Part shown: positions 1 through 13,979 of the stretch, piece after piece | Layout: each line of letters opens with the position of its first letter | Numbering within the stretch: position 1 is the first letter of the stretch | Origin: Candidatus Tenderia sp. | GTDB lineage: Bacteria > Pseudomonadota > Gammaproteobacteria > Tenderiales > Tenderiaceae | Assembly: GCA_031416075.1 (NCBI GenBank) | Contig: JANOSY010000049.1 | Coordinates: 1-13,979, forward strand | Reading direction: 5' to 3' | Length of the DNA: 13,979 nt | Position numbers and translations under genes: made by a program | Notes under the pieces: model-generated | Database searches by the model: none | What the model was told of the DNA's origin: nothing | What the model saw: the letters and a program-made list of their open reading frames with translations, nothing else

Positions 1-89
1 ACCTGAGCGATGCTTAATCCTTGATCGACTACCATGCGTGCGACTTCCAGTTTGAATGCGGGTTCGTAATGTTTGCGTTGCCTGCTCAT
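1..89 (-). CDS. IS3-family transposase OrfA, N-terminus (partial)
   Basis: Manual translation gives MSRQRKHYEPAFKLEVARMVVDQGLSIAQ, a typical HTH_Tnp_1 start (RK.Y...FK.E..R.V...G.S...). Confidence 0.85.
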   Translation of the reverse strand, partial: MSRQRKHYEPAFKLEVARMVVDQGLSIAQ

Positions 90-153
90 TGGTGTTTCCT
101 CTCCATGTGAATAATAATCCTATCGAGGTGTTCGTTTTTATTAAACCACTACA
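1..153 (-). mobile_element. IS3-family insertion sequence, left end (partial; continues past the window start)
   Basis: The minus strand from 153 reads TGTAGTGGTTTAATAAAAACGAACACC, an IS3-like 5'-TG terminus. It is followed by an RBS (GGAGAGG) and an OrfA start at 89. The IS110 coding sequence begins abruptly at 154. Confidence 0.85.
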
Positions 154-545
154 GTCTACGACATCCGCGTCCAGCGGCTCTCCCGTCAGGATGAGCAAGT
201 GGTGCGACTGATGGAGATGCCGGGGTTGGGTCCACTGAACTCCACCGCCTTCATCGCTGCAATAGGCGATCCACGCCACTTCCCCTCTGGGCGCTGCTTC
301 TCGGTGAGCATCGGGCTTACACCCCATGAGCACTCCAGCGGCGACAAGCAGCAGTTGTTCGGGATCTCCAAACGGGGCGACCGCTACCTGCACACCTTAT
401 TGATTCACGGTGCACGCAGTGCGTTGCGTTGCGTTGTGCGGAGGGTAAGGATGACCGCCTGCTCCAATGGGCTATCAAACTCAAAGAAGCCAAAGGCTTC
501 AATGTCGCCGCAGTATTTGGCGATATAAAAAATACCGCATCGTTA
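154..545 (+). pseudogene. IS110-family transposase, C-terminal fragment (interrupted, frameshifted)
   Basis: The frame from 154 reads VYDIRVQRLSRQDEQVVRLMEMPGLGPLNSTAFIAAIGD...IGLTPHEHSSG...ISKRGDRYLHTLLIHGARS, matching Transposase_20 motifs. A frameshift at (GCGTT)3, 421-435, leads into RCAEGKDDRLLQWAIKLKEAKGFNVAAV. The 3' end is degenerate and its coordinate is approximate. Confidence 0.85.
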
Positions 546-577
546 GCAGTGCATCATACCCTACTCGTCACGTCTAA

Positions 578-1478
578 GAGCCTATCCGAAATCTTTTTCC
601 CCTCTCCTCAAAAGTAGTACGAGGAAAGCAAGGTTGACAAGCTGGAGGCTGGTGTTGAGTTGCCGTTCGCAGTTTTTCCAGAGCCTCCGGCATTTTTCAA
701 GCCAGGCAAAAGAGCGCTCAACCACACACCGCTGTGGTATTACGGCACCAAAAGTAGGCGCCTCTAGGCGAAGGTGTGCAGCTCATTACGTTTGGCAATT
801 TCTACCGAGGCACCCAGTATTTCAGTCACGCCCTCTGCAAAGGGTTGGCCGGTATAACCGCCATCGGCAAGGACATTCGTCACGGCCGATAATGAGCTTT
901 TGTACGCTGTAAAAGCTTCCAATGCCCCTTTTCTATCGGTCACATCGGCGGTGGTGACGGCTATGGCATGAGGCAATCCTTGGGTATCAACGGCGATGTG
1001 ACGTTTAATGCTCGATACCTTTTTGCCTGCGTCATAGCCTTTCTGTTCTGTTCTGTTCTGTTGTGTCGGTGTTTTTCACGCTCTGGGCATCAACGATCAG
1101 GAATGTCGTGCGTTCGTTGCGCCCATGGCTGAGTCGGGCCTCTCCAACCACATTTTTTTAAAGCCTGCTCCAGCAGGCTTGGCTCGTCTCCCGATGGCTT
1201 TTCTTTCCATAGCTTGAAGTAGTGATACACCGTGCTTTTCGCGGGAAACTCACCAGGCAACATGTCCCATTGACAGCCACTTTTGAGCAAATACAAAATC
1301 GCACAAAATACTTCGTATAAATCTACTTGCCGTGGCTTTGTCTTCTTTCTGGCACTTTACAATAGCGGCAAAATCCGTGCAAACTGCTCCCGACTTACAT
1401 CGCTTATGTAGCTCTTCTTTCTCATCCTCATAGCTTGAAATAACTTGCATCAATTTTCAAAAGATTTCGAATAGGCTC
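578..1478 (-). mobile_element. IS5-family insertion sequence (IS1031-like ends), 901 bp, complete ends but inactive
   Basis: Terminal inverted repeats GAGCCTATCCGAAATCTTTT (578-597) and GAGCCTATTCGAAATCTTTT (reverse complement of 1459-1478) match at 19/20. A TAA target duplication lies at 575-577 and 1479-1481. Confidence 0.92.
582..1425 (-). pseudogene. IS5-family transposase pseudogene
   Basis: Reconstructed as MRKKSYISDVSREQF..LL*SARKKTKPR..GCQWDMLP..ALKK / ..LIVDAQSVKNTDT.. / KGYDAGKKVSSIKRHIAVDTQGLP..ELHTFA / VIPQRCVVERSFAWLEKCRRLWKNCER..*. Lesions are a TAA stop at 1357-1359, a (TTCTG)4 expansion at 1041-1060 and a 23-bp insertion near 744-769. An A7 slippage site lies at 1153-1159. 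Confidence 0.9.
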
Positions 1479-1669: not shown

Positions 1670-2179
1670 TTACCCCTGCTGCTGATAAACCTTGCGCCGG
1701 AACAGGTCGTTACGGCGGCTGACAAGCCGGTCTAAAAAGAGCAAGCCATCAAGATGATCAAGCTCATGCTGAATCGCCCGCGCCTCGAAACCGCTGGTTT
1801 TGAGACTCTGTTTTTCGCCCTGGGCATCCCGGTACTCCAGGGTAATGGTCTCGGCGCGCATCACATTGCCGGTAAAGTCGGGTACCGACATGCACCCCTC
1901 GCGCCCTTTGGCGTAGCCGTTGTATTCAACAATTTCGGGGTTGATCAGCACCAGATAGCCGTGGTGTTCGAGCTTCGGTTTGCTCGACACATCCACCAGG
2001 GCGATGCGCTGAAAGCGCCCCACCTGCGGCGCAGCGATGCCGACACCACCGGGACCACTACGCATGGTCTCCTCAAGATCGACCAGGAACTGGTGCAACT
2101 CGGCATCAAACAGCGTGACGGGTTCGCTGAGCTGCTTCAGCCGCTCATCGGGATAGGTAAGGATCTCCAACTTCGCCAT
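1670..2179 (-). CDS. def: Peptide deformylase
   Basis: All three PDF motifs are present: GVGIAAPQVG, EGCMS and HELDHLDG; 169 aa. Confidence 0.96.
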   Translation of the reverse strand: MAKLEILTYPDERLKQLSEPVTLFDAELHQFLVDLEETMRSGPGGVGIAAPQVGRFQRIALVDVSSKPKLEHHGYLVLINPEIVEYNGYAKGREGCMSVPDFTGNVMRAETITLEYRDAQGEKQSLKTSGFEARAIQHELDHLDGLLFLDRLVSRRNDLFRRKVYQQQG

Positions 2180-2184
2180 TACTT

Positions 2185-2706
2185 TTACCCAATCATCGTT
2201 TCAATAGGGGTGAGTTTGGCGTCGATCCCCTCTTTGATTACTATCTGCAAGGCCGACTCCAGCGCCGCAATCCCCTCGCCCGCCACACCGTCGATATGCA
2301 TGATGTAGATCGGCTTCGCCTCAGTGCCACCGACATCCGAATCGAGATTGACGATATTGAAGCCCGCCTCGGCCAGCGCGCCAGTCACATGGGCGACGAT
2401 GCCGGGACGATCAGCGCCATAGACGGTGATCTGCACATCCGGTTCCACATGGTGATGCAGATCACCATCCATCTTGTCGATGTGAATGTGCAGCCCCATA
2501 GAGTCAGCCACGGTAGAAAGCAGCCCTTGCAGTGATTTGACGGTGCCGTCGTGGCGCACCATCATCATGATGGTGAAGCTGTCACCCATGCGGATCATGG
2601 AGGCTTCGCCCAGATTGCAACCACCGTCGTAAAGGGCTTGGGTAACGTGGGCGACAATGCCGGGACGGTCTTTACCAACCAGGGATAGGATGTACCAGTG
2701 AGACAT
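2185..2706 (-). CDS. Tandem ACT-domain protein (GcvR-like / amino-acid-binding)
   Basis: Two ACT repeats, GKDRPGIVAHVT and GADRPGIVAHVT. Start set at ATG 2706 because AGGAG lies 5 nt upstream. Confidence 0.88.
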   Translation of the reverse strand: MSHWYILSLVGKDRPGIVAHVTQALYDGGCNLGEASMIRMGDSFTIMMMVRHDGTVKSLQGLLSTVADSMGLHIHIDKMDGDLHHHVEPDVQITVYGADRPGIVAHVTGALAEAGFNIVNLDSDVGGTEAKPIYIMHIDGVAGEGIAALESALQIVIKEGIDAKLTPIETMIG

Positions 2707-2726
2707 AACCACTCCTCAAATATTAA

Positions 2727-3479
2727 TCAATTTTTTGCAATCCAGATCAACGACGCCATCCGGCCTGTCACCTCGTCACGCCGGTATGAGTAGAACCGTT
2801 CCGCGTCACTGTAGGTACAATCGCCGCCACCATAGACCGCAACCACCCCCAGCGCCGCCAGCCGCTGCCGCGCCAGCTGATAGATATCTGCCAGCCAATA
2901 GCCGTCGGCCACTGGTTTAAATGCCAGATGGGCATCCGCATGGTGGGCAATAAAGGCGTCGCGCACCTCATCCCCCACCTCAAAAGCAGCGGGGCCGATG
3001 GCCGGGCCAAGCCAGACCAGCAGCTCGGCGGCGGCCACCCCCATGCTCAATACAGTCGCCTCGATCACCCCATCCAGCAGGCCGCGCCAACCGGCATGGG
3101 TTGCCGCCACTACGCTGCCCTGACGATCACACAACAGCAGTGGCAGACAGTCTGCTGTCATCACCGCACACACGGTATTGGGTAACCGGGTAAAACTGGC
3201 GTCGGCAACAGGATGCGCAGCCGTTGACGCCGCATCCACTACTACGGTGCCATGCACCTGCTGCAGCCAGAGTGGCTCACCGGGCAGCTGTTGCTGTTGA
3301 GACAGGCGGCGGCGATTCTCAGCCACCGCCTCTGGCAGATCACCCACATAGCCCGCCAGATTAAGGCTGGCATAGGGCAGCTGGCTAACACCCCCTTGCC
3401 GGGTAGTGACCCCGGCACGCACGGCGGCGGGGGCTGGCCAGTCGGGTACCATCCACCCTACAACGGTTTGATCACTCAT
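2727..3479 (-). CDS. pgeF: Peptidoglycan editing factor PgeF (YfiH; purine nucleoside phosphorylase/laccase-like family)
   Basis: Motifs WLQQVHG, TADCLP, HAGWRG, LGPAIGP and FYSYRR..TGRM; usual position after rluD. ATG 3479 has a GGAG RBS and overlaps the rluD 3' end. Confidence 0.95.
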   Translation of the reverse strand: MSDQTVVGWMVPDWPAPAAVRAGVTTRQGGVSQLPYASLNLAGYVGDLPEAVAENRRRLSQQQQLPGEPLWLQQVHGTVVVDAASTAAHPVADASFTRLPNTVCAVMTADCLPLLLCDRQGSVVAATHAGWRGLLDGVIEATVLSMGVAAAELLVWLGPAIGPAAFEVGDEVRDAFIAHHADAHLAFKPVADGYWLADIYQLARQRLAALGVVAVYGGGDCTYSDAERFYSYRRDEVTGRMASLIWIAKN

Positions 3480-4431
3480 TATCGGCTCCATCCTTCTGCA
3501 ACAGGGCGGCCAGCTGCTGCATATCCTCAGGCAGTGCCGCCTCCCACTCCATCATCTCACCACTGCTGGGGTGTTCCAGCCCCAGGCGGGCGGCATGCAG
3601 CGCCTGACGTTTAAAGTTACACAGCGTATCCGCCAGCGCATCGCTGCAGTCGGGCGGCAACCGCAACCGCTGGCCATACACCTGATCACCCACCAGCGGG
3701 TAGCGGATGTGGGCCATGTGCACACGTATCTGATGGGTACGGCCCGTCTCCAGATCGACCCGGATATGGGTATGAAGGCGAAACCGCTGCATCACCCGGT
3801 AGTGGGTCACCGCATGTTTGCCACTCTCCACCACCGCCATCCGTTTGCGGTCCACCGGGTGGCGTGCAATCGGGGCATCAACTGTCCCCCCTGCAGTCAT
3901 CACCCCACAGGCAACCGCCTGATACTGCCGCTTCATTACCCGTGCCTGCAGAAGATCCACCAGATGTTTCTGTGATTTAAGATTACGTGCCACCGCCAGC
4001 AGGCCACTGGTCTCTTTATCCAGCCTATGTACAATACCCGCACGTGGTACCTCGTTGAGTTCCGGGGCGTGATGCAACAGGGCGTTGACCAGGGTGCCGT
4101 CATAGTTACCCGCCGCCGGATGCACTACCATGCCGGCAGGTTTGTTGACAATGATGATATGCTCATCCTCATAAACGATGGAGAGTGGGATATCCTCCCC
4201 CTGCCAGCTCACCTCCTCTTCAGAGGTCGCCTCCAGTTCAATCTGCTCGCCCCCCTCCATTTTATCTTTGGCGCGCCGTTGTTTACCATTGACCAATACT
4301 TGGCCGGCCTTGATCCACTGCTGCAGACGGGCGCGTGAATAGTCCGGGAACAGTTGGGCCAGGACCTGGTCCAACCGCTGCCCTGAATAATCGGCAGGGA
4401 CTGTAATTGTTAAATATTCTGAAGATGGCAT
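3472..4431 (-). CDS. rluD: 23S rRNA pseudouridine(1911/1915/1917) synthase RluD
   Basis: S4 domain (RLDQVLAQLFPDYSRARLQQWIK), VNKPAGMVVHP, catalytic HRLDKETSG, GRTHQIRVH and RQALHA. The start at ATG 4431 is preferred but uncertain. Confidence 0.96.
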   Translation of the reverse strand: MPSSEYLTITVPADYSGQRLDQVLAQLFPDYSRARLQQWIKAGQVLVNGKQRRAKDKMEGGEQIELEATSEEEVSWQGEDIPLSIVYEDEHIIIVNKPAGMVVHPAAGNYDGTLVNALLHHAPELNEVPRAGIVHRLDKETSGLLAVARNLKSQKHLVDLLQARVMKRQYQAVACGVMTAGGTVDAPIARHPVDRKRMAVVESGKHAVTHYRVMQRFRLHTHIRVDLETGRTHQIRVHMAHIRYPLVGDQVYGQRLRLPPDCSDALADTLCNFKRQALHAARLGLEHPSSGEMMEWEAALPEDMQQLAALLQKDGADNE

Positions 4432-4479
4432 TGGTTTCTTTACAAAACAGGGCAATATGTCGCACGAAAAGGGGTAACC

Positions 4480-4529
4480 ATGCTAACAGATTTCAATCCG
4501 CCACCCCCTCACAAATATAGTGGCATACT
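4480..4529. promoter_or_regulatory. Putative divergent extended -10 promoters (rluD operon / BamD-family operon)
   Basis: TGtTAGCAT on the minus strand (4488-4480) and TGgCATACT on the plus strand (4521-4529). No clear -35 boxes. Confidence 0.3.
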
Positions 4530-4567
4530 AGCGTGATGCTGATTCACCATTGATGGTTATGTTAAAT

Positions 4568-5848
4568 ATGCAGATACGCAGACAGCTACTCGCCTTACTC
4601 CTTGCAGCAGGCTTAAGTTTGACCAGCCATGCCGCCGATGAAGGGATTTTGGCCGAGTACAGCTATTACGAAACGGGCAAGATTGAGCTCAATGCCGGAA
4701 ACTATCAGCAGGCGATCACCCATTTTACCAACCTGCAGAAGCGTTACCCCGACAGCCCCTACATCCCTCAGGCGCTTTTAGAGTGTGCCTACGCCCACTA
4801 CAAACTGGGACAGGCGGATGATGCCATTGGGCTACTCCAGGGATTTTTAACTGCCGAGAACAAACATCCACATAAGCCCTACGCCTTTTACCTTGCCGGT
4901 CTGGCCAAGTATCAGGAGGCCCTTGGGCGCATAGAGAACGCCAAGACCAACGAAGATGAAAACAGCGCCCGTGCCAGCACCCAGCAGGCTATCGACTACT
5001 TTGGCCAGCTGGTGGATAAATTTCCTGGCAGCCAATACAGCGATGATAGCCGCAAAAAAACCACCTACCTGCTGGAAAAACTGGTCACTCATCGCATCAA
5101 GCTGGAGGAGCTGAACGCCAGCCGCAGCCGTTTAAAACAGATTCAGGTTGAAAGCGATCAGGCCATTGTCTGGCTGCTCAAACAGCCCGCCGACCAGTAC
5201 ACCCTACAGCTGGTACGCAGCCCCGACTACGACACCGTCTTTATGATCTCACTCCAGTACAAACTGGAAAAAGAGGCCATCATCATCGAAACCGTGGGAG
5301 AAGAGGGCAAATTTTTCACCCTCTTTTATGGTGTCTATCCCAGCAAGGGCGAGGCACTCCTGGCAGGCAGCAATCTGCCCGGTGCCATTCTTGAGGCCCA
5401 GCCACTGGTACGTGAGCTGGCCTCCGTGCAGACAGAGATTACGGGGGATGTATCCCGCAAGACCGCAGACAACCCATCAGAAGAGTCCGTCACTGAATCA
5501 GTCCGCACCACAGCGTCAACACCTACAAGCAACATCCAGATCCCCACTGAACTCTGGTTAATGTCCCAAAACCCCATGGCCTACACCGTTCAGTTAATGG
5601 GTTCAGGCAGCGAGCGCGCCGTACATGCCTTCATTAACGAACACAATCTCGCAGACCAGACCACCTACTATCGCAGCATGCGCAAAGATGGCAGCAGCTG
5701 GTACTCATTGCTGTACGGTAGTTATATCGATAAATCGGCAGCCATCGAATCGGCACAACAGATGGGCATCGCCCTTGGCATTGAGCAGCCCTGGATCAGG
5801 CGCTTTCAGGGTGTCCAGAACGAAATCGAAAGCAGCAACAAACCGTGA
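4568..5848 (+). CDS. BamD/YfiO-like TPR protein fused to two DamX-type SPOR domains; signal peptidase I-type signal peptide
   Basis: Signal MQIRRQLLALLLAAGLSLTSHA|A has no Cys. BamD-type TPRs (YP.SPY..QA.LE.AYA.YK; YA.YL.GLA; F..LV..FP.SQY..D) are followed by two SPORs (WLLKQPADQYTLQL at about 5171-5440; WLMSQNPMAYTVQL..WYSLLYGSY..PWIRRF at about 5555-5830), separated by an S/T/E-rich linker. The start could be slightly upstream (4553/4559). Confidence 0.85.
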   Translation: MQIRRQLLALLLAAGLSLTSHAADEGILAEYSYYETGKIELNAGNYQQAITHFTNLQKRYPDSPYIPQALLECAYAHYKLGQADDAIGLLQGFLTAENKHPHKPYAFYLAGLAKYQEALGRIENAKTNEDENSARASTQQAIDYFGQLVDKFPGSQYSDDSRKKTTYLLEKLVTHRIKLEELNASRSRLKQIQVESDQAIVWLLKQPADQYTLQLVRSPDYDTVFMISLQYKLEKEAIIIETVGEEGKFFTLFYGVYPSKGEALLAGSNLPGAILEAQPLVRELASVQTEITGDVSRKTADNPSEESVTESVRTTASTPTSNIQIPTELWLMSQNPMAYTVQLMGSGSERAVHAFINEHNLADQTTYYRSMRKDGSSWYSLLYGSYIDKSAAIESAQQMGIALGIEQPWIRRFQGVQNEIESSNKP

Positions 5849-6813
5849 ATAGCCACCTGTATAGATTGGCCTCACTCTTTCTCAGTGCCGTTCTGCTCAG
5901 CGGATGTATTACCGTTCCCTTCACACCATTGCCAGAGCCATGGTCGGCAGAACATTATTACGATGCGGCCCGTCAGGCACAGGCCAGCGGCGACTACAGT
6001 GATGCATTAAAACAGCTGGCCGATCTTAAACAGCGCCACCCAGAGAACCCATACGCCAGGCTGGTGGCCATTGAGAGCAGCTATGCCCACTACCAGAGCG
6101 GAAACTATCTGGCGGCCATCCACTCAGCAGATCAACATATCGCCGAGCAACCCGATACCAGTAGCCTTGACTACGCCTGGTACCTGAAGGGGATCGCCCA
6201 CCTCAAACTCACCCACCAGAACGGCCACTTTGATGCCAACAACAGCCGTGCTGCCTACCAGAGCTTTGCAACGCTGGCACAAACGTTTCCGGCAAGCCAA
6301 TACCGGAACGAAGCGCTGCAACAGCTCCAGCCACTCCGTCTCCAGCTGGCTGACCACGAACTCGAGACCATTCATGCCCTGTTGCAACAGGGCAACCAGT
6401 CAGGGGCCCGCGAACGTGCCGCCTATCTAGCCAAAAACTATCCCGATACCGCTGCCGCCAACGCTGCTCTGATCATTCTGCATAGTGACAACCATAACAA
6501 GACAGTCAGTCAGCAGCACACAACGTGGCTGCTACAACAGGCACCTGACCACTACACCCTCCAGATGGCTGGCACCAGCGACCAAGAACGGCTTGAGACA
6601 CTGATCGCCCGTGCGCCTGAACAGCTCATCTGGTTTCAGCGCCCGGCACAGCGGCGGCTCTGGTATACCCTGCTCTACGGCCATTACGGCAGTGCTGCCG
6701 AAGCAGAGGCGGCCATACCCGCACTCAAAGCGCTCTTTGCCATTGATGAAGCGTGGGTGCAACCATTTGCAGCCTTGCAAAAAAACCTTCTTAATGCTGA
6801 TGATGGCCACTGA
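5845..6813 (+). CDS. BamD-like lipoprotein fused to a C-terminal DamX-type SPOR domain
   Basis: GTG start overlaps the upstream stop (GTGA). Lipobox LLSG|C; WSAEHYY, SLDYAWYLKG, FPASQY, LADHE and NYPDT; SPOR WLLQQAPDHYTLQM..WYTLLYGHY..AWVQPF at about 6526-6795. Confidence 0.87.
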   Translation: MNSHLYRLASLFLSAVLLSGCITVPFTPLPEPWSAEHYYDAARQAQASGDYSDALKQLADLKQRHPENPYARLVAIESSYAHYQSGNYLAAIHSADQHIAEQPDTSSLDYAWYLKGIAHLKLTHQNGHFDANNSRAAYQSFATLAQTFPASQYRNEALQQLQPLRLQLADHELETIHALLQQGNQSGARERAAYLAKNYPDTAAANAALIILHSDNHNKTVSQQHTTWLLQQAPDHYTLQMAGTSDQERLETLIARAPEQLIWFQRPAQRRLWYTLLYGHYGSAAEAEAAIPALKALFAIDEAWVQPFAALQKNLLNADDGH

Positions 6814-6890
6814 TGCTGCGACAACCCCAACCCAGCTATGCTAGGCTACGGCACCTTTAACCTACACCATTCACAACACCGAAACAGACA

Positions 6891-7646
6891 ATGTCACTGA
6901 TAAAATCACTTACACCGCTGCTGCTCATCACCCTTTTGTTAGGTGGTTGCGCCACTGCCGATCTCGACTCCACCAAATGGGCCGCTGAGCGCTTTTACAA
7001 CGAAGCCAAACACGCCCTTGACAACAACGACTACGAAATCGCCATCAAACGCTACGAGGATCTGGAGATCCACCACCCCTTCAGCCCCTATACCCAGCAG
7101 GCACAGCTTGAGATCGGCTACGCCTATTACAAATACGATGAGCCGGACTCCGCCATCGCCGCTGCCGACCGCTACATCAAACTCTACCCCCGCGCTGACA
7201 ACGTTGACTACGCCTACTACCTGCGGGGTCTGGCCAGTTTTGAACGGGGCCTCAGCACACTCGATCTGGCCCTCGGGCTGGATATCACCAAACGTGAACC
7301 CAAGGCCGCCAAAAATGCCTTTATCTACTTTGAAGAGCTGATTAAACGTTATCCTGACAGCCGCTATGGTGATGACGCCAAGCGGCGGATGGTTGACCTG
7401 CGCAACCGCCTGGCAGCCTATGAACTGCACGTCGCCCACTACTATATGCGCCGTGGTGCCCACCTCTCCGCCGTCAACCGTTGCAAAAACATACTGGAAA
7501 ACTACCCACAAACCCCCTCCGTCCCCGATGCACTCGTGACGATGGCAGAGGCCTACCAGCAGCTAGGCATTCACGATCTGGCTAACGATACACTCCAGGT
7601 AATACAACTCAACTACCCTGACAAAATCAGTGCAATGCAACCCTAA
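6891..7646 (+). CDS. bamD: Outer membrane protein assembly factor BamD (ComL/YfiO)
   Basis: Lipobox LLGG|C and a full five-TPR pattern including PFSPYTQQAQL, VDYAYYLRGL, YPDSRY and RLAAYELHVAHYYMRRGAHLSAVNR; 251 aa; located at the rluD-divergent locus. Confidence 0.95.
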   Translation: MSLIKSLTPLLLITLLLGGCATADLDSTKWAAERFYNEAKHALDNNDYEIAIKRYEDLEIHHPFSPYTQQAQLEIGYAYYKYDEPDSAIAAADRYIKLYPRADNVDYAYYLRGLASFERGLSTLDLALGLDITKREPKAAKNAFIYFEELIKRYPDSRYGDDAKRRMVDLRNRLAAYELHVAHYYMRRGAHLSAVNRCKNILENYPQTPSVPDALVTMAEAYQQLGIHDLANDTLQVIQLNYPDKISAMQP

Positions 7647-7657
7647 GGAGAACCGTT

Positions 7658-8182
7658 ATGTGGGACTTTTTTGAAACCGTACGCCACCGCCACTCCGTGC
7701 GTTGTTACCAGAGTGATATGCCGGTAGAAAAAGAGAAGTTGCACGCCATCCTGGAGACGGCCTGTAGCGCCCCCTCCGCTGGCGACCTGCAAGCGTATAA
7801 AATCATCGTTGTCAGCAATCAGGAGAAACGTCAGGCACTTGCCGATGCCGCTGAAGGACAGGCATTTATCTCCGCAGCACCCATCGCACTCATCTTCTGT
7901 GCCGAACCACAACGTTCAGCCACACAATACGGTGAACGGGGCCAGACTCTCTACGCCATCCAGGACACCACCATTGCAGCCGCCTACGCCCAGCTCGCCG
8001 TTGTGGCTGCGGGTATGGGTTCCACCTGGGTCGGTTATTTTGATGAGGAGAAGGTCCGCGACATTCTCCAGATTGAAAGCACACTGACACCCATCGCCAT
8101 GCTCAGCCTCGGCTACCCGGCTGAACTGCCAGAGCCAACCACACGTCGCCGACTCGATGAGATTGTCAGCCAAGTTGAATAA
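7658..8182 (+). CDS. Nitroreductase family protein
   Basis: RHSVRCY, APSAGDLQ, QDTTIAA, GMGSTWVGYF and LSLGYP; AAGGAG RBS overlaps the bamD stop. Confidence 0.93.
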   Translation: MWDFFETVRHRHSVRCYQSDMPVEKEKLHAILETACSAPSAGDLQAYKIIVVSNQEKRQALADAAEGQAFISAAPIALIFCAEPQRSATQYGERGQTLYAIQDTTIAAAYAQLAVVAAGMGSTWVGYFDEEKVRDILQIESTLTPIAMLSLGYPAELPEPTTRRRLDEIVSQVE

Positions 8183-9629: not shown

Positions 9630-11063
9630 ATGGACATCATGAACTGGGTTCTAAGCCTGTTAATTGCGCAGGGAATACTGGGTGCCATTGATACGATTTA
9701 CCATCACGAACTCACGGTCGCCTTGCCGCGCCGTCCCGGTGCCAAGCTGGAACTGTCGATTCACGCAGTTCGCGCTCTGTTATATGGCGTTGTATTCGCA
9801 TCGATCGCCAACGTTGAGTTTCATGGCGGATGGGTAACCGCAATCGTCATATTGGTTGCGATTGAAGCCGGACTGACCTTGTGGGACTTTGTCGTCGAAG
9901 ACAACAGCAGAAAACTCCCCGCAACGGAACGCATGCTGCATACGGTTCTGGCTATCAATGGCGGCGCTCTATTCGGCCTTTTTGCCTGGCAATTGGCTCA
10001 TTGGTGGGGACTTCAAACCGCACTGGTAACGGTCGACTATGGTTGGCAAGGCATTACCCTGACTATCTTCGCGATAGGCGTGGCTGCGTCAGGGATTCGT
10101 GATGGCTTGGCTGCATTAAATCTCGGGAAAACCATCGCCGCGCCAAATCCTTTCCTGGGCCAAGCGCATCAGCGATATCTGGTAACCGGGGGCACGGGAT
10201 TCATTGGCGAAACCTTGGTCAACCAATTGCTGGACGCCGGGCACGAAGTGACAGTTTGGGCGCGCGATCCTTTGCGCGCAGCATATTTGTTCGATGGCCG
10301 GGCACGCATCATCCGTGATGTAGCCCTGCTTGACTCATCTGAACACTTCGACACCGTCATCAATCTGGCTGGAGCGCCGGTAGTCGGGCCACGATGGAGT
10401 GCTCGACGCAAGGCACAGTTATTGTCCAGCCGATTGGAGACCACGCAATCATTGCTGAGCTGGTTTACCCAAGCCAAGTTTAAACCTGCGACCTGGATAC
10501 AAACATCAGCGATTGGTTACTACGGCGTTCGAAAATCCAGTGAAACACTGAATGAAAACAGCGCAAAAGGCACAGGCTTCATGGCTGATCTCTGCACGCG
10601 CTGGGAAGACACCGCCCAGGCTGCAGATCAACTTGGGGCACGACGCGTCACCCTCCGGTTTGGTCTGGTATTTGGGCCAGGCGGCGCACTGCCTGCATTG
10701 TTACTCCCATATCGCTTGGGATTCGGGGGCCGCCTGGGTGATGGCCAGCAAGTGATGAGCTGGATTCATCGTGACGACCTGCTCACACTCATAGCCCAGG
10801 CAGTTCAAGATGATCGCATGCAAGGTACCTATAACGCGGTTGCACCAGAAGCGATCACCCAAACCCAATTCGCTAAAACGGCGGGCCAAGTCTTGGTGCG
10901 TCCTGTCTGGCTACATGTTCCGGCGGCGTTAATCCGTGGGATGGCTGGCGAAATGGCCCAGCTGTTTGTTGATGGTCAACGTGTGATCCCTCAACGCCTG
11001 CTGAAGCAGGGTTTCCAGTTCCGTCACCCAACGCTATTAAGCGCACTCCGTGATTTAAGATAA
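9630..11063 (+). CDS. TIGR01777 family NAD(P)-dependent oxidoreductase/epimerase (YfcH-like) with N-terminal membrane domain
   Basis: About 165 aa of hydrophobic helices, then LVTGGTGFIG, VINLAGA, SAIGYYG, SWIHRDD, YNAVAP and the DUF1731-like GQRVIPQRL...GFQF. Confidence 0.9.
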   Translation: MDIMNWVLSLLIAQGILGAIDTIYHHELTVALPRRPGAKLELSIHAVRALLYGVVFASIANVEFHGGWVTAIVILVAIEAGLTLWDFVVEDNSRKLPATERMLHTVLAINGGALFGLFAWQLAHWWGLQTALVTVDYGWQGITLTIFAIGVAASGIRDGLAALNLGKTIAAPNPFLGQAHQRYLVTGGTGFIGETLVNQLLDAGHEVTVWARDPLRAAYLFDGRARIIRDVALLDSSEHFDTVINLAGAPVVGPRWSARRKAQLLSSRLETTQSLLSWFTQAKFKPATWIQTSAIGYYGVRKSSETLNENSAKGTGFMADLCTRWEDTAQAADQLGARRVTLRFGLVFGPGGALPALLLPYRLGFGGRLGDGQQVMSWIHRDDLLTLIAQAVQDDRMQGTYNAVAPEAITQTQFAKTAGQVLVRPVWLHVPAALIRGMAGEMAQLFVDGQRVIPQRLLKQGFQFRHPTLLSALRDLR

Positions 11064-11072
11064 GGCCGAGCC

Positions 11073-11630
11073 ATGAGCAAACTTTACCCACACCTATTAG
11101 GCGATGCGTTTCATCAGTTAGCGCCCATGCTCCAGAGATTTCACACGGAGATGGAACTGCCGTGGCATGGCAAAGTACAAGTCATCTGGAACCCGCGCCC
11201 TGCGCTCCGTCAATTTCTCAAACTTGGAGGTCTTCCTAGAGAAACTGCCTCACAACCCATCACCGTCTGTGTGACCGAGGCAAACAATAGTGAAATCTGG
11301 AAACGGCAGTTTGGAAAACAAGTCATGGCGTCCAGGCAAAAAATCAGCAAGGACTCGATACAGGAAGGTTTTGGGCCAGTGGCTCTCATACTCGATACGT
11401 TTGTAGACAAAGGTGCACTCATACAAACCTGTCTACGTAGTCGGCTCTTGGGTATACCGCTACCTCGCCCGTTAGAGTTCCGGGTTACTGCGCGCGAATG
11501 GGAGCAGGATGAGTGCTTCCACTTCGATGTGGGAATCGCCTGGGCGAATGTTTCGCTCATTCGCTATGTCGGTTGGCTTCGCCCCCAACCCCTATCGACA
11601 TCATGGGCACGCTCGAACAACGCTGTTTAA
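11073..11630 (+). CDS. DUF4166 domain-containing protein
   Basis: LY..LLG.AF..L.P.LQRFH, EIWKRQFG, LLGIPLP, FHFDV and LIRYVGWL pattern; typical neighbour of this regulator cluster. Confidence 0.75.
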   Translation: MSKLYPHLLGDAFHQLAPMLQRFHTEMELPWHGKVQVIWNPRPALRQFLKLGGLPRETASQPITVCVTEANNSEIWKRQFGKQVMASRQKISKDSIQEGFGPVALILDTFVDKGALIQTCLRSRLLGIPLPRPLEFRVTAREWEQDECFHFDVGIAWANVSLIRYVGWLRPQPLSTSWARSNNAV

Positions 11631-12049
11631 TTCATACGAATATGGAAACGGCTTTCCAGGCCACACAAGACTATTCCCTCCGCAGCGACTGGGACCCTTT
11701 CACCAAAGCGATCGAACGAACTGCTGACGGGCAGGTTTTAGTTAAGGCCTGGCATGGCATGTCAATGCCGGTTGAATACGTTTCCTGGCACCCGCCAATG
11801 CGCGCAGCGATCCGCATGGTGCATGGGCCCCGCATGCTCGAACGCTTCGCGGGCACCTGGAGTTTCACAGAACACACACCCGACATCGTCGAATTTCGTT
11901 TTCGTTACACGATGCGAGCAGCCCGCCACTGGCGGTGGCTCGAGCCTTTGATGCTAATCTATTTCAGGATAGAAACTCGACGCCGGTTGAATGCTTTAAA
12001 ACACTATCTGAATCCTGCCGACATCCACATAGATAAGTCATGCGGATGA
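11603..12049 (+). CDS. SRPBCC / polyketide cyclase-like (START-fold) protein
   Basis: AF..TQDY..R..WDPF, EYVSW.PP..AAI.MV.GP..L..FAGTW.F, FRY. ATG 11603 chosen; it overlaps the DUF4166 end by 28 nt. Confidence 0.75.
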   Translation: MGTLEQRCLIHTNMETAFQATQDYSLRSDWDPFTKAIERTADGQVLVKAWHGMSMPVEYVSWHPPMRAAIRMVHGPRMLERFAGTWSFTEHTPDIVEFRFRYTMRAARHWRWLEPLMLIYFRIETRRRLNALKHYLNPADIHIDKSCG

Positions 12050-12085: not shown

Positions 12086-13844
12086 ATGACCAAGCTTTAT
12101 TTACTGGCGGGCAATGGCAGCGCATCCGATTGGTGGGACGACGTCACGCCTCACTTTCAACATTACCAACCCATCCCAATTGAATTACCGGGTTTTGGCA
12201 GCAATACGAGCCCGCCGTGCGATCGCCTGGCTGCCTACGCCGAGTCATTGTTTGAGGCAACCGAAGCGGGCCATGCTATTTTGGCGCTGCACATATCGAA
12301 GCAGCAACCCAAGGCTTTGTCGCGCATAGCAAAAGCGGTCGACTTCGCCTAGCGGAAAAGGCTGGCTTACCTGTTCCTGCGATGTGCACGGTAAAGCACA
12401 GTACCGACCCACAACTCCCAGACTTACTATCAACCTCAGCCCCCGATGGTTGGGCCGTCCGCTCATCGAGCTATCAAGAAGATCAAGCTGACACCGCGAA
12501 TGCTGTCCTCAGTACCACCTACCTGCGCCAGCCCAGCGGCGATGTGCCGATGCGCGTTGAAACACTCCATGCAGCTGGTGTCGAGGAGATCGTGGTGCAA
12601 CGCTTCATCGTTCCCCGCGTATCAGGCATTGCCTTTACACGTCATCTGTCGGCCGAAATCGAATGGGTTAATGGCCACCTCGAGTCTCTGGCCGATGGTC
12701 GTGTCACGCCACACCGCACGATACTGTCACGGCTCGGCGCCGCCTGGGGCGACGACACATTTGAAACCATTCAAGGGTTAACCCGCGATGCACTCTGGGA
12801 GTTTCTACAAAGTGTGTTGTGTACATTTCATTATGTACACGGCGATATCGAGTGGGCTTGGGACGGCGAACAATTGTGGTTGCTGCAGTATCGACCCATC
12901 AGCCACTACCCCTGGCGCCGGCATCTGACCGCAGCCAACATAGCTGAAATTTTGCCCCCGCAACCCAGTCGGCTGGTTGAATACGCGCAGCGACGTGCAG
13001 CAGCATTCCCGCAGTCATGGCCAAATGGGATACCCGTGTCTTGCAAGACAACGAGCCCTTTACCGCGCTTTGTGGCGATGCGTCCTATATCAACAATGAT
13101 TTATTTCTGGCCCGGCTCGCCGACTGGGGCCTGCCGGCGAGCCGGTATTCAGACGAGATCGGCGGCGGCACGCCCACCTTGCCATGGAACCCCCTGAAGC
13201 TTCTGCGCTCACTTCCCTTGTTTTCACGCATGCAGCGCAATAGCCGACACCAACTAAAGTACCTGGAAAGTGACCTGCGCCGCTTCGACCAGGAATTACA
13301 TAAATTGGCTGCCGCCAACACAAATGGTCAACAACTTGCTGACTGGTTTGTCCGTTTTTATGTTTTCGTCGTGCAAGGCAACCTCATTATTTCCACTGCA
13401 CTTGCGAGTAGTGGCGGCGATGGGCTCGGCCGCCCACCTACCGTCTACGCCGATTTTTCTAACAAACCACACCGACTTCCTTGGGAAACCGACCCAGCCA
13501 CCTCTCGCCCAGCGCAATCTGCGCTTCCAATACAAGCTTTCCCAGTTTGGCCTGCCGGAGTAAAACTTGCCCATAAGCTCTCACTGCCTGGCATGCGGGG
13601 CTATCACTTGCAGGTCCGCGAGTGGTATCGAGACAATCTGATGCGGATATTTTTCCGCCTACATCACGCGTTTAGTGAACAGGATCGGCAACACTGGTTT
13701 TCACCTCACGCATCGCCGCGCGATCGGGGAAACAGCTTCTGGCAAGACGGACACGCAAGCCACGAACAGGCTACTGGCTTTATCATTTACCCCGGTAATG
13801 TTGAGGGTGTTCTCGGTCAAGACATCCTGCTGGTCGAAACACTA
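12086..13844 (+). pseudogene. Alpha/beta-hydrolase + PEP-utilizing (PPDK/PEP-synthase-like ATP-grasp) fusion, pseudogene
   Basis: Three reading frames join into one protein. Hydrolase start LYLLAGNG..ELPGFG; out-of-frame junction near 12280-12292 into SKSGRLRLAEKAGLPVP..WAVRSSSYQED..VVQRFI..SGIAFT..DIEWAWDG..LWLLQYRPI; frameshift near 13000; cut at ILLVETL by an IS before the phospho-His motif. Confidence 0.82.
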
Positions 13845-13979
13845 GTGTACTGTAACAAATAGTATGATCATATATAATAGCGCTACTCCTTCCTTATTTT
13901 CTGGTGCGCTGACTATGCCTGTCCCCGTTGCTATCTCACTCACAGAAGAAGAACGCCAAGAATTTCATCGCTGTTGTCG
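13843..13979 (+). mobile_element. IS630-like insertion sequence, left end (partial)
   Basis: Abrupt switch at TA (13843-13844) to AT-rich GTGTACTGTAACAAATAG. An ORF from ATG 13915 reads MPVPVAISLTEEERQEFHRCC, resembling IS630 transposase N-termini. The other end is outside the window. Confidence 0.65.

Follow-up and report, generated by a model that had tools for sequence, protein, structure and literature searches.

What can a BamD-family protein do when it lacks both the lipid anchor and the half through which BamD docks on BamA? BamD is one of only two subunits that are essential in BAM, the beta-barrel assembly machinery, and it is usually taken to be a single-copy lipoprotein with five tetratricopeptide repeats (TPRs). 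The question is raised by a stretch of 13,979 nucleotides from Candidatus Tenderia sp. (contig JANOSY010000049.1; the whole stretch is hereafter called the window), on whose + strand three BamD-family genes, P1, P2, and the canonical bamD, follow one another, two of them fused to SPOR domains that are predicted to bind septal peptidoglycan. We concentrate on P1 (4568-5848, + strand), which heads the cluster and encodes 426 residues from the ATG at 4568; the earliest possible start is TTG 4550, and the TGA stop lies at 5846-5848. The domains of P1 are known ones; what is new is how they are combined and that P1 has lost both the half that docks on BamA and the lipid anchor. The explanation that best accommodates these features overall, and which we advance tentatively, is that P1 is a soluble, exported, BamD-derived adaptor.

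The BamD-type module of P1 ends in its fourth repeat

Behind its signal peptide, P1 consists of BamD-type TPR1-3 followed by the first helix of TPR4 (4634-5107, + strand, residues 23-180; residues are counted from ATG 4568, except for Pfam coordinates, which are counted from TTG 4550). The Pfam YfiO profile matches residues 38-190 with 99.5 bits and covers positions 7-152 of its 203; in the neighbouring proteins, it is covered from 5 to 197 (P2, 125.4 bits) and from 5 to 199 (BamD). The TIGR03302 subfamily score of 111.1 exceeds the cut-off of 81.4, whereas the score of 71 against the NF008119 equivalog stays below the 363 of that family. The E-values of the P1 matches are all far past chance level.

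An earlier note, made from the DNA sequence, had placed the end of the BamD similarity at LEKLVTHRIKL, opposite RNRLAAYELHV of the neighbouring BamD, and had TPR4-5 with their arginine replaced by a SPOR region. Both statements hold, and profile, alignment, structural model, and superposition agree on them. The three-way alignment pairs these two strings, BamD chains from the PDB align to P1 residues 32-186 only, and neither the alignment nor an AlphaFold2 (AF2) model contains the TPR4B and TPR5 helices; because TPR4B-5 are missing, P1 also lacks the arginine equivalent to E. coli R197. The model, built on 14 orthologs with a mean predicted local distance difference test score (pLDDT) of 78 and values >90 across most of residues 30-170, has seven helices in this part (23-42, 46-59, 66-79, 83-90, 103-124, 128-151, and 158-205) and then passes into strands. 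It superposes best on E. coli BamD (2yhc; Z 17.0, rmsd 1.9 Å, 130 residues), where the aligned stretch covers model residues 29-172 and chain residues 11-154 of 209, with TPR4-5 not retained in the model. The top 27 Foldseek matches all contain BamD (one is a BamA-BamD fusion, the other 26 are BamD chains or BAM complexes), and the SPOR domain of DamX comes next at rank 28.

The retained part has itself changed at positions that are otherwise nearly fixed. We compared alignment columns over 22 rows of P1, 14 of P2, 33 of BamD, and 29 of fusions from outside the order of the window's genome (an order of uncultured Gammaproteobacteria whose 17 species-level genomes fall into six genera of a single family), and conservation of the TPR groove surface was judged from sequence columns as well. 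Six changes in P1, namely P98N, D104P, R/K110A, R169L, N170E, and E176R, fall in columns that are 85 to 100% conserved in BamD, P2, and the outside fusions, and the set of residues conserved specifically in P1 includes K38, H100, Y115, and Y144. Several of the changed positions sit in helix 7, which in BamD packs on the missing TPR4B. The E176 column, which belongs to the conserved Y-E of BamD, holds E in 94% of BamD rows and 100% of P2 rows and R in 68% of P1 rows. P2, for its part, retains an arginine at the E. coli R197 column and the conserved helix-7 glutamate. The E. coli substrate-contact residues R49, N60, Y62, and G65 map to Q47, K58, Y60, and S63 of P1, but these columns are uninformative for P1 because the sampled BamDs do not conserve them either; Q, for example, occupies the R49 column in 73% of the P1 rows and 45% of the BamD rows.

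What the truncation removes can be set against the contacts reported for BamD. According to PMC8292188, BamD has five TPRs and binds POTRA5 directly, and PMC10945584 reports that its N-terminal TPRs contact the internal signal of outer membrane proteins (OMPs), with the C-terminal ones (R197, D204) contacting the beta-signal. Judged from its sequence, P1 cannot occupy the POTRA5 site of BamD; on the account of Germany et al., it could keep at most the internal-signal site. The claim that P1 lacks the BamA-binding half is thus right for the POTRA5 contact and too broad beyond it: POTRA2 is reported to touch the N-terminal side of BamD (bioRxiv 10.1101/2024.10.31.621230), so that a residual contact between P1 and BamA is possible.

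Signal peptide and lipidation

P1 begins with a predicted signal peptide (4568-4633, + strand, residues 1-22, MQIRRQLLALLLAAGLSLTSHA) with a hydrophobic core of only ~12 residues and a predicted signal peptidase I (SPase I) site, SHA then A (ADEG), at its end. Small residues are maintained at positions -3 and -1 of this site in the P1 orthologs. We checked for a lipid anchor with a PROSITE-style lipobox pattern, applied from every possible start; it matches P2 (LFLSAVLLSGC) and BamD (LLLITLLLGGC) and finds nothing in P1. Using one of the in-frame alternative starts (4550, 4553, or 4559) lengthens the protein by no more than MMVMLN, and no cysteine occurs in the open frame from the preceding stop up to C73, the sole cysteine of the 426-residue protein. 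A signal peptide ending in SHA|A with no lipobox cysteine, as the earlier note described it, is therefore what any choice of start gives, the upstream frame included. The first 60 residues are likewise free of cysteine in 13 of 13 close P1 orthologs.

This picture changes outside the window's genus. Two of the nine genome-borne P1-type genes, both from other genera, encode a lipobox-like cysteine, AVTMLFIGSGC in protein P0018 of genome G007 and IAICLAIGLGC in genome G006, and the other seven show no match. Their genes occupy 1976-3328 of locus L041 (G007) and a frame running -1..1222 in locus L015 (G006). Because these two proteins retain the cysteine, the loss of lipidation is lineage-specific and not clade-wide, and the earlier suggestion of a non-lipidated protein stands for the window's genus and fails for the clade as a whole. 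The same two orthologs suggest that the truncation of TPR4-5 preceded the loss of lipidation in the window's genus. Export by the Tat route was considered and rejected, as the RR of MQIRRQ is not conserved (ILKQ in P0003, IRLL in P0011) and the signal peptide has only ~22 residues; from these sequences, the Sec route is more likely.

SPOR domains, hinge, and linker

In place of TPR4B-5, the TPR module of P1 is followed by a hinge (5108-5182, + strand, residues 181-205), modelled as a continuation of the preceding helix with pLDDT <50 at residues 182-186, and then by SPOR1 (5183-5452, + strand, residues 206-295), a putative, divergent DamX-like SPOR domain. Residues ~205-291 match the DamX SPOR structure 2lfv (E 4.2e-7 over 87 residues), and SPOR1 also matches NF008153, the DamX SPOR region. 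A disordered linker (5453-5542, + strand, residues 296-325, pLDDT <50) leads to SPOR2 (5543-5848 including the stop codon, + strand, residues 326-426), for which Pfam SPOR (PF05036, cut-off 21 bits) matches residues 344-417, counted from TTG 4550, at 35.6 bits when the full protein is scored and at 29.3 bits when the domain is scored by itself. The model shows a beta-alpha-beta-beta-alpha-beta fold at residues 211-283 and a second such domain at 339-412. Coiled-coil oligomerization through helix 158-205 was considered and set aside, given that the distal part of this helix is the low-confidence hinge, after which the usual pre-SPOR segment follows.

SPOR domains are described as recognizing the denuded glycan strands that septal amidases produce (PMC12772221), and those of P1 are predicted, and from their sequence expected, to bind denuded septal glycan. 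The peptidoglycan anchoring proposed in the earlier note is reasonable given two SPOR domains, its support being the identity of the domains. Among the E. coli SPOR proteins, P1 resembles DamX in SPOR1 and has a standard Pfam SPOR as its second domain, but none of DamX, DedD, FtsN, and RlpA carries a BamD-type TPR module. DamX, DedD, and FtsN are anchored in the inner membrane and RlpA is a lytic transglycosylase lipoprotein, each with one SPOR domain.

Selection on P1 and its distribution

P1 is a real gene under purifying selection. The ratio of nonsynonymous to synonymous substitution rates (dN/dS; Nei-Gojobori, four within-genus pairs) was 0.12-0.22 over the whole of P1, 0.16-0.30 over P2, and 0.11-0.15 over bamD. 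P1 goes without a lipid anchor and without the POTRA5-docking half, yet is under selection as strong as that on bamD. By region, dN/dS was 0.125-0.14 in the TPR, 0.07-0.15 in SPOR2, and 0.21-0.24 in SPOR1, and it rose to near-neutral values of 0.75-1.5 in the linker, whose amino acid identity within the genus is 19-27%.

P1-type genes, defined by a truncated TPR and two SPOR domains, occur in nine of the 17 genomes and in five of the six genera of the order. The carriers are all five genomes of the window's genus, in one of which a contig end cuts the gene, and a single genome from each of four other genera, among which one P1-type gene is split across two contigs. A word-indexed search yielded 13 P1 orthologs of 43-97% identity, all 421-445 residues long. 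In 9/9 P1-bearing genomes, P1 stands at the head of the bamD cluster. P2-type genes are present in 14 of the 17 genomes, bamD was seen in 16 of 17 loci, one genus of eight genomes has P2 and bamD only, and genome G016 has P1 and bamD without P2. The P2 type, with 37 further cluster representatives in the search described below, is more widespread than P1, and P2 could be an alternative, peptidoglycan-tethered BamD.

Beyond the order, an exhaustive search over 1.84 billion cluster representatives gave 34 proteins scoring below 1e-30. Length and pattern of the matches served to select 44 candidate fusions, which we scanned with Pfam: the YfiO profile ends at 141-164 of 203 in 7/7 P1-type representatives and at 180-200 in 37/37 other TPR+SPOR fusions. 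A strict lipobox is found in 30 of these 37, and most of the remainder have near-lipobox cysteine motifs or an incomplete N-terminus. P1 shares with these BamD-like TPR1-5 plus SPOR lipoproteins (P2, P0024-P0043, and others) a BamD-type TPR, a C-terminal SPOR, and the rluD-bamD locus; they have the full YfiO match (37/37) and one SPOR in the six checked, whereas P1 is truncated, has two SPORs, and in the window's genus has no lipid anchor. From the ESM Atlas came nothing but generic clusters, SPOR or TPR+SPOR, that belong to other phyla. At 11 loci inspected outside the order, rluD adjoins a fusion and bamD in five and bamD only in six. In a sample of the class (300 scored genomes, among them three unpublished ones with one match each; threshold E ≤ 1e-25), 250 genomes match the fusion query, and at least two matches were found in only 12, including G000 and G015. 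One genome of this sample, G307, has two adjacent fusion-like matches (C76:9899-11848), one of them with an internal TAG; here the fusion gene may have been duplicated in tandem, or a copy may be broken. Lipoproteins of the full-length BamD-like/SPOR type, encoded beside bamD, make up a family that is scattered and recurrent, occurs outside the order as well, and is apparently undescribed; a full-text literature search turned up no description of BamD paralogs with fused SPOR domains. P1, so far found only in this order and in metagenomic relatives, is a derived form.

On its origin, a maximum-likelihood (ML) tree unites P1 in one clade (SH-aLRT 99) with a long stem of 0.82 substitutions per site, and the free ML tree nests P1 among 17 outside fusions (SH-aLRT 98). 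Approximately unbiased (AU) tests reject neither a P1+P2 clade (p 0.454) nor a clade of P1 with the BamD of the order (p 0.342), and for this reason we claim no donor for P1, be it BamD, P2, or an outside fusion. Compared with BamD itself (YfiO/ComL; PF13525, TIGR03302), P1 is alike in TPR1-3, in the TPR scaffold residues, and in its position at the bamD locus beside rluD; it differs in having no lipobox and no TPR4B-5, in the replacement of the Y-E glutamate by Arg with five further invariant positions changed, and in the addition of two SPOR domains. P1, a BamD-family derivative, is not simply a trimmed version of the neighbouring BamD, as its long-stemmed clade and its changed invariant residues show.

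A tethered adaptor and its rivals

That P1 has the architecture described and is tethered to the cell wall we consider highly probable. In the adaptor reading, P1 would be exported, cleaved, and soluble in the periplasm, where its two SPOR domains, on flexible linkers, would tether it to amidase-processed denuded glycan, mainly in septal peptidoglycan. There, TPR1-3 would serve as a protein- or peptide-binding adaptor and not as a BamD-like core subunit of BAM, and P1 would couple OMP assembly to sites of new cell wall, e.g., by keeping segments of clients, or a partner associated with BAM, in place at the septum. We favour a role in OMP assembly because of the BamD ancestry of P1 and its persistent co-location with P2 and bamD, although we regard such a BAM-linked role as a possibility, much less certain than the architecture and the tethering. 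More speculative, and in our view unlikely, is the proposal that P1 and P2 jointly extend BAM to the septum: their SPOR domains would bring BamD-derived receptor modules to denuded glycan where the cell divides, with P2 lipidated and able to dock on BamA and P1 free, acting as a bivalently tethered binder of clients or partners.

RmpM of Neisseria, whose peptidoglycan-binding domain is OmpA-like and which lacks TPRs, provides a non-homologous precedent for a peptidoglycan-binding BAM accessory. It is named as an alternative BAM subunit in 10.1101/2024.10.31.621230. PMC9242858 reports that components of BAM bind peptidoglycan and that the insertion of OMPs reaches its maximum at division sites.

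Several observations weigh against the adaptor reading or its link to BAM. The predicted cleavage of the signal peptide is derived from the -3/-1 rule alone. SPOR1 scores 12.6 bits against Pfam SPOR, below the cut-off, so its binding of glycan is less certain than SPOR2's. The TPR fold is a generic one, and the YbgF/CpoB TPR 2xev_B superposes on the P1 model with Z 16.0 and rmsd 2.0 Å, nearly as well as BamD does, so that the assignment of the module to BamD is based on the sequence profiles. P1 is without residues that all other BamD-like groups retain, and through the loss of these BamD-invariant residues it may have left the functional context of BAM. Finally, P1 occurs without P2 in genus g6 and P2 without P1 in genus g5, so the two are not obligate partners, and the position next to bamD may be left over from a tandem duplication.

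The lost invariant residues and the generic TPR fold lend weight to the main rival, in which P1 is a BAM-independent scaffold of the divisome or of peptidoglycan remodelling: the SPORs would give septal targeting, and the TPR would offer a generic platform for amidases, activators, synthases, or Tol-Pal, comparable to CpoB, NlpI, or WthA/LbcA. The six changed near-invariant positions, the lost TPR4-5, and the structural nearness to YbgF/CpoB all fit, as do a sub-threshold tol_pal_ybgF match (49.9 bits) and the TPR+SPOR clusters without a BamD label in other phyla, and periplasmic TPR hub proteins acting in peptidoglycan turnover and division are documented in PMC12772221. P1 would also resemble CpoB (YbgF), a coordinator of septal peptidoglycan synthesis and Tol-Pal, in being a Sec-exported, non-lipidated protein with a predicted three-repeat TPR. 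However, the profiles place the TPR in YfiO/BamD, where TIGR03302 is passed, and not in YbgF, where the 49.9 bits compare with a cut-off of 90.1 (TIGR02795); P1 has no N-terminal coiled coil and CpoB no SPOR; P1 heads the bamD cluster in every genome that bears it; and a Pfam scan of the window found no divisome or amidase gene. On balance, we judge a BAM-independent scaffold to be somewhat unlikely. Continued attachment of P1 to the membrane, by an uncleaved signal anchor, a cryptic lipobox, or a stable complex with the lipoprotein P2, is quite improbable. The 4-nt stop-start overlap of P1 and P2 does suggest coupled synthesis, and the P1-type proteins of G007 and G006 have their lipobox-like cysteine; in this genus, however, no cysteine precedes residue 73, the short hydrophobic core is followed by S-H-A|A, and G016 has P1 without P2.

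Still less probable is a decoy that titrates BamC or OMP substrates off BAM. The retained half is the part of BamD that was crystallized with the BamC N-terminus (3tgo, the top Foldseek match), and it is the half reported to contact the internal signal of substrates (PMC10945584). Against this, BamC, sought with PF06804, was detected in none of the five genomes of the window's genus, including the window's own (99.98% completeness), and scored above cut-off in two of the 17 genomes of the order (G001 and G016), so a role as BamC decoy, which the earlier note had raised, cannot be general and has become a weak proposal. Purifying selection and tandem SPORs would also suit a localized positive function better than pure titration, and even the sampled BamDs do not conserve the positions with which E. 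coli BamD contacts its substrates. A separate idea, that the fusions replace BamC, was ruled out: BamC co-occurs with P1 in G001 and G016 and scores above cut-off in two of five outside genomes with fusions. Decay of P1 as a functionless duplicate, finally, could be imagined from its truncation relative to BamD and its long stem branch, but it is effectively refuted by dN/dS, which is low overall and far lower in the folded domains than in the linker; the frame is moreover intact in 9/9 carrier genomes from five genera, and the 13 further orthologs reach from 43 to 97% identity.

Implications

Should P1 and P2 work with BAM, they would tie OMP assembly to the cell wall of the division site through a direct molecular link. 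In the account of PMC9242858, such a link is so far known only as a regulatory effect of peptidoglycan maturation. A septal extension of BAM by P1 and P2, if true, would mean that coupling is built into protein architecture, as opposed to the indirect coupling of E. coli through the maturation state of peptidoglycan. If the two work apart from BAM, P1 would be a case of half a BamD put to new use, as a soluble adaptor in the periplasm.

Genome annotation is affected as well. P1 passes TIGR03302, and P1-bearing genomes may therefore seem to hold two or three BamD genes. Because automated annotation names such proteins "BamD," inferences on BamD copy number or essentiality that are drawn from annotation would be wrong for these genomes. 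NCBI, for instance, labels the P1-type protein P0019 (MBI3772521.1, 483 residues, truncated TPR and two SPORs) as "outer membrane protein assembly factor BamD."

The gene cluster and its surroundings

P2 (5845-6813, + strand) encodes 322 residues from a GTG start at 5845, a lipoprotein (LLSGC) with BamD-like TPR1-5 and one SPOR, and the canonical bamD (6891-7646, + strand) encodes 251 residues with the lipobox LLGGC, scoring 224.6 bits against YfiO and 273.5 bits against TIGR03302. The stop of P1 and the GTG of P2 share 4 nt, and the same overlap recurs in loci L009 and L010, i.e., within the genus; no terminator-like sites were seen between P1, P2, and bamD, which is weak evidence. A YfiO search of the genome gave five matches, the three genes of the cluster and two weak ones in a single unrelated 301-residue frame. 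The genome carries one BamA, a BamB, and a BamE. Of the 20 read runs listed for window positions 4450-7700, none is given as RNA: their kind is DNA or not recorded, and they come from metagenomes of sediment, freshwater, and drinking water.

Divergent from the three BamD-family genes lie rluD (3472-4455, - strand; Pfam PseudoU_synth_2 and S4), a synteny anchor kept in relatives, and pgeF (2727-3491, - strand). Directly 3' of bamD is a nitroreductase-family gene (7658-8182, + strand, MWDFFETVRHRHSVR...), which has the same place in nine of the 12 relatives' loci listed, so that the synteny block reaches beyond bamD. At the 5' end of the contig, short transposase fragments at 199-528 (+), 764-976 (-), and 1090-1296 (-), among them an IS110-family piece (Transposase_20, 109 residues) and an IS4/5 DUF4096 piece (67 residues), look like broken remnants of insertion sequences. 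Two open reading frames (ORFs) near the other end (12382-13197 and 13017-13862, + strand) overlap by ~180 nt in different frames, the first with a short PPDK_N match (PEP-utilising, ATP-binding) only and the second with no Pfam match; the pair may be a frameshifted or unusual gene for a PEP-utilising-enzyme-like protein. The region 9630-12049 (+) encodes an NAD-dependent epimerase/DUF1731 protein with an N-terminal hydrophobic extension of ~170 residues, preceded by genes for a MarR-type regulator and a DCC1-like thiol-disulfide oxidoreductase and followed by DUF4166 and SRPBCC (Polyketide_cyc2) genes.

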